DNA of 64,000 nt from a virus. The translations under genes and the position numbers were made by a program. The notes beneath the pieces were generated by a model. The model made no database searches, was not told the origin of the DNA, and worked only from the letters and a program-made list of their open reading frames with translations. Positions 37,792-40,116 of this stretch are shown one piece after another. The stretch lies in UHGV virus genome UHGV-0167591. One strand, 5' to 3'. Numbering within the stretch: the stretch's first letter is position 1; every line of letters starts with the position of its first letter.

Positions 37792-37819
37792 ATTACTCTA
37801 ATAAATTTATTAGAGCAAT
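37792..37819. promoter_or_regulatory. Bipartite (overlapping inverted) C1 operator upstream of the tRNA/ban transcription unit
   Basis: ATTACTCTAATAAATTTATTAGAGCAAT: two operator copies sharing the central AAATTT. Confidence 0.75.
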
Positions 37820-40116
37820 ACACCAATAACATCACAAGCAACACCTCGTGTGTCCCCTTTGCAAGACACAGAACGTCTGGCAAAAAGAGATTCCACTCTG
37901 AAGCCGCTGTCCTGATAAAGCTCTCTGATGTTTGGCGCGCCACTGTTAGTAATGAGAACCTTTGCACCTCTGCGATGAGCATCCGTCAACAGAGACACCA
38001 GGCGTTTTTGCTCTTCAAACTTAAAGTCATGACCGGAATAGTTCGTGAACCCCTCAGTATTGGGAAGCGGTTCATACGGCGGATCGCAAAAAATGACATC
38101 TCCTTCTCCGGCAGCTTCAATCACTCCAGCAAAATCACCACATACAAACTCAGATCGCCCTTCCGCACCAAGAAAGGCTTCCATCTCCTGTAGTGGAAAA
38201 TACGGAGTTTTATACTTCCCATAACCGACATTGAACTCACCAGCTTGGTTGTAACGCGTCAATCCGTTAAAACAATGTCGGTTCAGGAATAAAAACGCCG
38301 CTGCGCGATGCAAATCATCATAGACTTGTTTGTTAAACGCATTCCGTACTGCCAGGTATCCTTCCTGTGTGTTGTAGTCCTGGAAAAACCGATGCGCCAG
38401 AGTGATAAGTGAATGTCCCTCGCGTTGCAGAATCTTGTAAAAGTTAATCAGGTCAGCATTCACATCATTTAGCAGATTTTCTCGGTATCCGGCATTCATG
38501 AAGACAGCTCCGCCACCGACGAACGGTTCAACTAGGCGCTTTCCTCCTGGCAAATGGCGGAAAATTTGTTCCAGAACACCAAACTTTCCACCAGCCCATT
38601 TCAATATGGAGCGTTCGAATTCCGCCGCCGGTTTAACTTTCCGTTTTGTTGCTTCATGCCCTTCTGTCTGATGACATGCTGCCTTCATAATCCGATCACC
38701 AATCCATCGCATTACCGGTATCGCCATACTATTGCCGATCGCCTTGTAACGCGGTCCGTCAGCTGCAAGCATCGCGGCCTCTTCTTCGCTTAAATCAGGA
38801 TAGTGATTGCGAAAGTATGCCAGTTCATCTGAAGTAACTTTTTTACGCTTTTCTGTAGGGATCAGCGTATGTCCATCGGGAAAACCTTGCAGTCGTTCAC
38901 ATTCTACAGGTGTAAGCCTGCGCACGTTCATCACATGCGGTGCAAATAATGCATAGGCGACTCCATGTTTATCTGTCGTCGTAAGACATGGGGATAAATT
39001 CAACATTGGTTCGGTTGCATTGCCGCCATTCTCAGGCGACCGCCCAATCCAGTTGCCTGGTATCCCATAAGCTATTTGAGAAATATCTTGCCCGTGTTCT
39101 TTACTGGTAAAAGTAACGATTCCTTTGCAATCAAATACAATAGGAGCCTCATGGTTACATGTAAGAGTGGGGGATGTTCCGTCGTTTTTTATTTCAGCCC
39201 CTCCTTGCCCGTGAGCCATGCAATACACAAGCCCACTACCGCGCTGCGCAAAAATCTCCTGGTTACTTGCACCGATCCCGCCGGTATTGTGTGACTGGTT
39301 AAGTGTCGGGTGAGGATTTACAGGGCTATCCCAATGGCTCCCGCTCTTAATGCCATTTCCAACATCTCTGGCAACTTCCGCCCCCTCGCTTCGGCTCGGC
39401 GCAATATTCCTGCGCACGCCGTCGAACTCAAAAAGTATCGTTGCGGGATCGATGTCTGTTCGAGCACTTGCGACAACAAACACACGTCGGCGTCGTTGTG
39501 CCACTCTGAAGTATTGGGCGTCAAGGATTCTCCAGGCCACTTTTCGCTGCGGTCCATAAATACAACCACACTGTGGCCACTTTGGAACATGGCTACCGGT
39601 TTTGGCATCCCACCGCCAGAATGCGTTACTTTTTCGTGATTCAGGTCGATCACTAGGTTCGAATGGTGCATCTTCTCCAGCCAGACCGGCAAGGAAATGC
39701 CCGAATGCGTTGTCTGATGATGACAAGACTCCTGGAACATTTTCCCAGACGATAACAACTGGTTTGAGGAAGGATTCAGCTCGTTTGTCGTCAATTGCAT
39801 TAGCAAGCTCTACATATTTTAAAGTTAATGCGCCGCGCTCATCATCAAGCCCCCCACCCAACCCAGCGATACTGAATGCTTGGCAAGGGGTTCCACCGAC
39901 AAGCACGTCGGGCGCTTCGATCTCTCCAGCCGCAACTTTTTTGGCCAGTTTTGTCATGTCGCCAAGGTTGGCGACATGGGGCCAGCGGTGCGCAAGAACG
40001 GCAGATGGAAAAGGCTCGATTTCAGCAAACCACGCCGGACGCATACCCAACGGTTCCCAGGCAATGCTTGCAGCTTCAATTCCACTGCAAACAGATCCAT
40101 AGCACAGCTCTCTCAC
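37810..40116 (-). CDS. dmt: Dmt bifunctional DNA methyltransferase (C5-cytosine MTase N-terminal, Dam-like N6-adenine MTase C-terminal), 768 aa
   Basis: N-terminal C5-MTase motifs ([18 protein letters not shown]); C-terminal Dam-like motifs (KWAGGK, DPPY). Confidence 0.9.

Follow-up and report, generated by a model that had tools for sequence, protein, structure and literature searches.

The open reading frame (ORF) at positions 37810..40116 of the minus strand in a 64,000-nucleotide (nt) stretch of the virus genome UHGV-0167591 (the whole stretch is hereafter called the window) is, as judged from its sequence, orthologous to dmt of phage P1 and belongs to a diverged P1-like phage-plasmid of Escherichia. 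It is highly probable, taken as a whole, that the encoded protein, Dmt, is a two-methylase enzyme that has a GATC-related role at the packaging site pac, a probably active C5-cytosine half, and a recognition region built of cassettes. A sequence-only reading of this DNA had proposed the fusion of C5-cytosine and Dam-like N6-adenine methyltransferase domains in one ORF of 768 amino acids (aa), and Pfam and NCBIfam hits above the cut-offs confirmed it. The fusion is already known and is ordinary for P1-like phage-plasmids; as first described, it adds little, since dmt is a textbook P1 gene whose role in pac cleavage is established. The cytosine half, in turn, varies by cassette exchange among otherwise near-identical phage-plasmids.

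Identification of the dmt Gene and Domain Structure of Dmt

According to the ORF listing, the gene is a single unbroken frame with a GTG start. A megablast search among deposited phages gave matches with dmt of P1, P7, SJ46, RCS47, JL22, and others (~91% nt identity, 80-92% of the gene). In the PLSDB database, 564 plasmids with a dmt match were detected, nearly all of them non-mobilizable P1-like plasmids of Escherichia or Salmonella. The P1 record (NC_005856; P1_gp069, 754 aa) labels dmt as a bifunctional DNA methyltransferase that modifies GATC adenines and "perhaps" C5 of cytosine. The NCBI protein WP_322559989.1 (P0001, 768 aa), listed as a "Dam family site-specific DNA-(adenine-N6)-methyltransferase" of uncultured Escherichia sp., showed 100% identity over the 500 N-terminal residues queried. 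Its 90%-identity cluster includes members from E. coli, E. marmotae, E. ruysiae, and E. whittamii, located on contigs of 94-96 kb. Every feature of P1-type Dmt that can be examined in a sequence, namely, domain order, identity, and operon position, was found in the window protein. The orthologs of P1 (dmt, formerly dam), P7, and SJ46 share with it the C5-then-Dam order, the operon, the operators, the start overlap, and a pac site elsewhere in the genome; P1 Dmt shares 92-97% aa identity with the window protein over the C5 core and 95% over the Dam half. The gene and the parts of its product are as follows:

37810..40116, minus strand: coding sequence of dmt (768 aa), from the GTG start through the stop codon; ~91% nt identity to P1/SJ46 dmt outside the variable region
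39397..40116, minus strand: C5 core, N-terminal part, aa 1-240 (Pfam, NCBIfam, AlphaFold2, Foldseek); 92.5% aa identity to P1
40072-40089, minus strand: motif I of the C5 half, CSGIEA, aa 10-15
39880-39894, minus strand: motif IV, GTPCQ, aa 75-79, with the codon of the catalytic Cys78 at 39883-39885
39736-39744, minus strand: motif VI of the C5 half, ENV, aa 125-127
39484-39498, minus strand: motif VIII of the C5 half, QRRRR, aa 207-211
38692..38925, minus strand: C5 core, C-terminal part, aa 398-475, with motif IX (RRLTPVE, aa 399-405) and motif X (GNS, aa 461-463); 97.4% identity to P1
38617..38691, minus strand: inter-domain linker, aa 476-500, outside both Pfam domains; 68% identity to P1
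37813..38616, minus strand: Dam-type N6-adenine methylase domain, aa 501-768 (PF02086); 94.8% identity to P1 Dmt
aa 506-511: motif KWAGGK of the Dam half
38509-38529, minus strand: motif EPFVGGG of the Dam half, aa 530-536
38074-38085, minus strand: motif DPPY of the Dam half, aa 678-681

Pfam analysis placed a C-5 cytosine DNA methylase domain (PF00145, E 2.3e-33) in the N-terminal part, in two stretches, and a D12-class N6-adenine methylase domain (PF02086, E 1.7e-56) at aa 507-742. According to NCBIfam, the protein exceeds the cut-offs of both TIGR00675 (dcm; 108.6 bits, cut-off 100.65) and TIGR00571 (dam; 252.9 bits, cut-off 114.85), and its score with the housekeeping Dam equivalog NF008152 (245.4 bits) lies below the cut-off of 441. 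By these scores, the Dam half is a member of the Dam family and not the housekeeping enzyme. The sequence-only reading had named a domain devoid of catalytic motifs as evidence against a bifunctional protein; all catalytic motifs are present in both halves. In the C5 half, motifs I, IV, VI, VIII, IX, and X are all present in the canonical order. The PCQ of motif IV is kept in all complete intein-free members of the Dmt family that were checked, and ENV, QRRRR, and GNS are likewise conserved family-wide.

Modeling of aa 1-500 in the AlphaFold2 program with 148 diverse sequences gave a predicted local distance difference test score (pLDDT) of ~85-98 for the greater part of aa 1-230 (lower at aa 71-100) and of ~56-94 over aa 400-480. 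The modeled core matched M.HhaI, M.HaeIII, and DNMT1/3 in Foldseek at a probability of 1.00. A model of the full 768 aa, computed with an alignment of 25 sequences, had a mean pLDDT of 42.7 and was discarded as unusable. In comparison with P1, the ratio of nonsynonymous to synonymous substitution rates (dN/dS) was 0.12 for aa 1-240, 0.12 for aa 398-500 (linker included), and 0.11 for the Dam half, at dS of 0.25-0.48. The C5 half is thus no relic, because its conserved motifs are intact and its dN/dS of 0.12 indicates purifying selection. Since the catalytic core is intact and under purifying selection, this half most likely produces 5-methylcytosine on phage DNA before packaging, as far as sequence features allow one to predict.

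Two peculiarities of motif IV were observed in other alleles. The P1 reference dmt (L001:4001-6265) alone has W74 in this motif (VWGTPCQ), and the 82 other complete Dmt alleles, that of the window included, have GGTPCQ. Inactivation of the P1 C5 half by W74 was considered; the position would correspond to a residue that is not invariant in M.HhaI, and W74 is retained here as a bare observation. In addition, many other Dmt alleles (P0045-P0083; phages RCS47 and vB_EcoM-Ro157c2YLVW, in which dmt was matched in three pieces) carry an intein of ~345 aa with the Pfam domains Hint_2 and LAGLIDADG_3. It is inserted directly before the catalytic cysteine of motif IV (GGTP/CFTAGHMVL...VVHN/CQAFS, slashes marking the intein borders), so the residue that follows the intein is the methylase nucleophile.

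Dam Half and the pac Site

The Dam half matches E. coli Dam at E 2e-59, and the C-terminal 274 aa of Dmt match E. coli Dam structures (E ~3e-60). The D12-class fold and motifs are common to the Dam half, E. coli Dam (PDB 2g1p, 4rtj), and T4 Dam; unlike E. coli Dam, the window Dam unit is a domain of a larger protein. Residues aligned to K9, N120, L122, R124, and Y138 of E. coli Dam, which we take to be the residues that contact GATC in Dam-DNA structures, are retained together with DPPY, and two positions differ (P134 to G, R137 to K). Because the Dam half is 95% identical to that of P1 Dmt, for which GATC activity is annotated, it can be inferred that it methylates N6 of adenine in GATC.

The sequence-only reading had connected Dam methylation with a GATC-dependent pac site, and a site of this type is present in the window:

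11254..11440, minus strand: packaging site pac, located within pacA (10440-11633) and containing 4+3 TGATCR hexamers plus a further GATC

It is of the P1 type and 92% identical to P1 pac, with the 4+3 hexamers and the further GATC conserved; the pac cleavage sites are annotated in the P1 record. According to a review (PMC12707154), P1 packaging depends on methylated GATC at pac, and for this reason dmt is essential in Dam- hosts.

GATC sites are also clustered elsewhere in the window. At 7271-7345, between cre and the c1-side operators, TGATCA hexamers occur at 7271, 7279, and 7287 (8-bp spacing), and a fourth one at 7340. Dam methylation sites are listed in the P1 record for the regulatory region of cre, and, by its sequence, the stretch 7271-7345 is probably a second Dam-sensitive control region. 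As for the diversity of the Dam half, two lineages were observed among P1-like Dmt proteins: one with the C-terminus ...RGVAHDVLGILL, found in P1 and the window, and one with the C-terminus ...RVVANDIIAIMK, found in the 762-aa Dmt class. The Dam half has therefore been exchanged as a block too.

Variable Region and Cassettes of the C5 Half

Nearly all the divergence of the window protein from P1 Dmt is confined to aa 241-397. This region is only 15.9% identical to that of P1 and 67.5% identical to that of SJ46, whereas the flanking segments show 92-97% identity. Within it, the following elements were distinguished:

38926..39396, minus strand: variable (target-recognition) region, aa 241-397, located between motif VIII and motif IX, the usual place of the target-recognition domain in C5 methylases; matched by plasmids in a mosaic pattern in blastn
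39226..39342, minus strand: cassette A, aa 259-297 (cassette map)
39136..39225, minus strand: cassette B, aa 298-327 (cassette map)
39070..39135, minus strand: remnant of cassette C, aa 328-349, 22 aa, with the SPTLRAGNS... core deleted (comparison with SJ46 and P0004)
38953..39069, minus strand: cassette E, aa 350-388 (cassette map)

Among Dmt proteins, the segment from QRRRR to ECERLQGFP varies in length from 97 to 287 aa, and the variable region resolves into ~13 cassettes of 25-40 aa, most of which have a central (S/A/H)-P-(T/C/S)-(L/I/V) core. Ten cassette architectures were found among 122 Dmt proteins:

B: 672-aa class, as the sole defined cassette; P7 also gives a cassette-B match
A-F: 710/718-aa class
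B-E: P0003 (739 aa)
A-B-E: P0002 and the window
L-F-G-I: P1
A-B-C-D-M: SJ46
A-B-E-D-J: P0089 (808 aa)
A-B-C-D-K: P0101 (826 aa)
A-F-G-H-C-E: P0004, P0005
A-F-G-H-C-D-M: 862-aa class

The cassette map itself detected no cassette C in the window protein. According to the blastn analysis, DNA homology to other plasmids ends at nt 170 and nt 312 of the variable region; the former point is the A/B boundary (aa 297), and the latter is the deletion point in cassette C. Thus, unlike P1 (L-F-G-I) and SJ46 (A-B-C-D-M), the window has A-B-(C remnant)-E, and in P7 only the cassette-B match was seen. Since its cassettes differ from those of P1, the predicted set of cytosine targets differs as well.

The cassettes are not restricted to Dmt. 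When the variable region alone served as a HMMER query against the whole protein library, 442 clusters were matched cassette-wise, at varied positions in proteins of 150-1133 aa, and many of the matches are limited to query positions 110-155 (cassette E) or 1-68 (flank and cassette A). Many database matches are to cassette E only, at 60-78% identity, and cassette A was found alone in many other C5 methylases, also in Vibrio phages. The variable regions of related enzymes comprise 124-468 aa, which we take to be several times the length of a monospecific recognition domain. The cassette set of the window was not found in deposited phages, the best match of cassette E in the phage collection being 39% identical (a Morganella phage), and none of 5426 complete E. 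coli genomes contained the window arrangement at a coverage of at least 80%; the allele is present in E. marmotae, E. ruysiae, and E. whittamii. In the phage-plasmid papers searched, no description of cassette shuffling in Dmt was found.

The same C5 subfamily, with a variable region of the cassette type, was also found in fusions with the PF05869 "phage N-6-adenine-methyltransferase" (P0273-P0387, 619-663 aa; Enterobacter, E. coli, Shigella). The adenine methylase at their C-terminus comes from another Pfam family than that of the window Dmt; these proteins are therefore independent fusions and not orthologs, and a fusion of C5 and N6-adenine methylases arose more than once.

Cassettes as Possible Tandem Recognition Domains

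By analogy with the methylases of Bacillus SPbeta-group phages, the C5 half can be regarded as multispecific, with the cassettes acting as separate tandem target-recognition domains (TRDs); we consider the case for this close to balanced, perhaps slightly favorable. It is favored because no defined cassette is universal (the abundant 672-aa class carries B only) and because cassettes are exchanged among relatives. Tandem recognition domains have been described in Bacillus phage methylases (PMC8936443, PMC12707154). Like the window C5 half, M.SPbetaI/MtbP, M.Phi3TI, M.SPRI, and M.H2I are phage-borne orphan enzymes with one core and tandem short units between motifs VIII and IX. They differ in having no fused adenine methylase and in that their multispecificity was proven experimentally, whereas that of the window protein is predicted; the Dmt cassette repertoire differs from, and exceeds, that of the Bacillus enzymes. 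In BLASTP, the SPbeta MtbP (L007:1716-3047) aligns with the window C5 half along its whole length (E 9e-14, 22% identity). The first recognition domain of MtbP, TRD1 (SPEGLSPTLTT), lies opposite cassette B (DGTSPTLTC) within this alignment; the second one, TRD2 (EPAFTVNTIDRHGVAI), lies opposite cassette E, with which it was compared in hhalign. SPbeta TRD1 additionally aligns with residues 238-257 of M.HhaI, T250-L251 included. As for TRD2 (EPAFTV), which we take to resemble the GGCC enzyme M.HaeIII, a PDB sequence search with the segment gave no match, and no target is claimed for cassette E.

A broader proposal may be put forward tentatively, with a little less than an even chance of being correct: that the P1-family Dmt proteins and the wider set of proteobacterial phage C5 methylases are multispecific and draw their exchangeable cassettes from one shared pool, which would make them a Gram-negative counterpart of the SPbeta group. 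The window allele would then write up to three 5-methylcytosine motifs (A, B, E) in addition to GATC, all by means of a single protein made early in lytic growth. The "dual specificity" suggested in the sequence-only reading may in that case understate the enzyme, because its C5 half has three recognition cassettes.

Several observations weigh against an active and multispecific C5 half of this kind. Cassette E resembles SPbeta TRD2 only weakly (hhalign E 7e-4, probability 26%). The AlphaFold2 model has a pLDDT of 27-57 for aa 235-382 and offers no confident structure, so no separate cassette folds are modeled. Among 11 cassette families compared in hhalign, only D and E are clearly related (probability 85%, E 7e-7), and the C-J pair is marginal; the notion of the cassettes all being recognizable repeats of a single unit found no support, as only D-E is significant in this profile-profile comparison. 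In the papers that were searched, no measured cytosine methylation or cytosine specificity was found for any Dmt C5 half, and the P1 record goes no further than the "perhaps" quoted above. Moreover, 5-methylcytosine could expose DNA to methyl-dependent restriction such as Mcr. A CRISPR interference screen scored P1 dmt as non-essential in a Dam+ host (PMC10695390); the benefit of dmt is therefore conditional.

The main alternative is that the C5 half is monospecific, the cassettes being sub-elements (loops, strands) of one composite recognition domain in which each combination sets one cytosine target. One target is usual for bacterial C5 methylases (PMC8936443), and the nearly constant first place of cassette A could mean a structural role, but no defined cassette is shared by all: B stands alone in the 672-aa class, A, B, and E are all missing from P1, and E is missing from SJ46. 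Although most cassettes have no significant mutual similarity and AlphaFold2 resolves no separate folded units, as a composite domain would have it, whole cassettes are cleanly gained or lost in frame between alleles, which stay abundant. The window region also contains three P-T/C-L-type cores, compared with one in monospecific enzymes, and B and E each align with a different recognition domain of an enzyme whose multispecificity is proven. On balance, a single cytosine target is possible and has to be taken seriously, although we rather doubt it.

It is improbable that the C5 half is catalytically silent, as a relic or as a DNA-binding/targeting module for the Dam half, with GATC methylation alone being of importance. 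GATC methylation is indeed the only activity firmly annotated for P1 Dmt, and the odd W74 stands in motif IV of the P1 reference allele. However, all six strongly conserved C5 motifs are intact, Cys78 included, and conserved in the aligned family; dN/dS is ~0.12 in the core and 0.096 in cassettes A and B compared with SJ46 (dS 0.55); and the same C5 core occurs both stand-alone and fused to the different adenine-methylase family described above. An artifact in which assembly or a frameshift joined two genes, or in which two proteins are made via an internal start, is scarcely credible. M477, located in the linker of the window allele, could serve as such a start, yet it is not conserved, being T in P1 and SJ46. 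The same fused frame is found in P1, P7, SJ46, and more than 100 protein clusters from independent assemblies, on which ground an artifactual fusion was rejected, and the 768-aa protein of the window recurs on several contigs. The preferred explanation remains a genuine fusion with a probably active, cassette-built C5 half.

Operon Context and Neighboring Genes

The gene dmt is the last one in the operon Odmt-uhr-hrdC-dmt, followed by Oban and tRNA genes:

41367..41383, minus strand: C1 repressor operator Odmt, with the promoter Pdmt just downstream; differs from the C1 operator consensus at one position; aligns with Odmt/Pdmt as annotated in P1
40113..41295, minus strand: upstream operon genes uhr (41011-41295) and hrdC/rdgC-like (40113-41018); 96% nt identity to P1 (P1 annotation)
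37792..37819, no strand assigned: divalent C1 operator Oban a/b, overlapping the last dmt codons and stop (C1 operator scan, P1 annotation)

The upstream stretch with Odmt, Pdmt, uhr, and hrdC is 96% identical to that of P1. The GTG of dmt overlaps the hrdC stop as GTGA, matching the annotated P1 dmt start. A scan of the window gave 15 C1 operator matches, compared with 0.3 expected by chance. Downstream of dmt, a dicF-like region precedes the tRNA-Asn and tRNA-Thr genes, as in P1. The view that Dmt is an orphan methylase, also part of the sequence-only reading, agrees with this context: no restriction gene is adjacent, the neighbors being hrdC/uhr upstream and tRNA genes downstream. In a further tRNA gene at 35472-35547 (minus strand), ARAGORN recognized tRNA-Met (CAT); the P1 counterpart, in the corresponding place after tciA-C, is annotated as trnI, tRNA-Ile2 (CAT).

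In P1, the EcoP1I res/mod genes lie beyond mat, ref, and cre, which in the window occupy 3914-4582, 4744-5304, and 5914-6945, respectively. In the corresponding place, at its far left, the window instead carries on the plus strand an ORF of 688 aa (84-2150) with no Pfam or PADLOC match and a gene for a PIN_12/PIN_8 protein (2931-3881) with a weak PADLOC PDC-S34 match. The GC content of this left stretch is low (0.415 at 2001-4000). The stretch, which stands in place of EcoP1I res/mod, may represent variable defense cargo.

In public databases, automatic annotation names Dmt proteins only as "Dam family ... methyltransferase", and the cytosine half is ignored. A few records label Dmt as "multidrug DMT transporter permease", having expanded the name dmt incorrectly.

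Proposed Role of Dmt and Its Significance

Judging by the conserved P1 elements, the C1 repressor would shut off the dmt operon in the lysogen, and the operon would be switched on at lytic growth. Translation of dmt is probably coupled to that of hrdC through the GTGA overlap, by comparison with P1. The Dam half would maintain full methylation of the seven or eight pac GATC elements as the phage DNA replicates, and the PacA/PacB packaging enzyme would then cut the methylated pac with no need for host Dam, as expected from the P1 system. If the behavior of the family applies, the C5 half would methylate cytosines in one to three target sequences of the progeny DNA ahead of packaging. On injection into the next host, the genome would then already be protected from those type II restriction systems that match these targets. 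The protection from restriction systems that the sequence-only reading had ascribed to Dmt is retained here as plausible, by analogy with related enzymes.

P1-like phage-plasmids spread resistance genes in Enterobacteriaceae, and differences in methylation could help set which hosts each element can enter, depending on the restriction systems of the host. If the shared-pool proposal is true, the host restriction systems that a given element can evade would change as cassettes are gained and lost between phage-plasmids, and the dead remnant of cassette C in the window allele would be a scar of such gain and loss. If the cassettes are separate recognition domains, they would also constitute a natural parts list for cytosine-methylase specificity.

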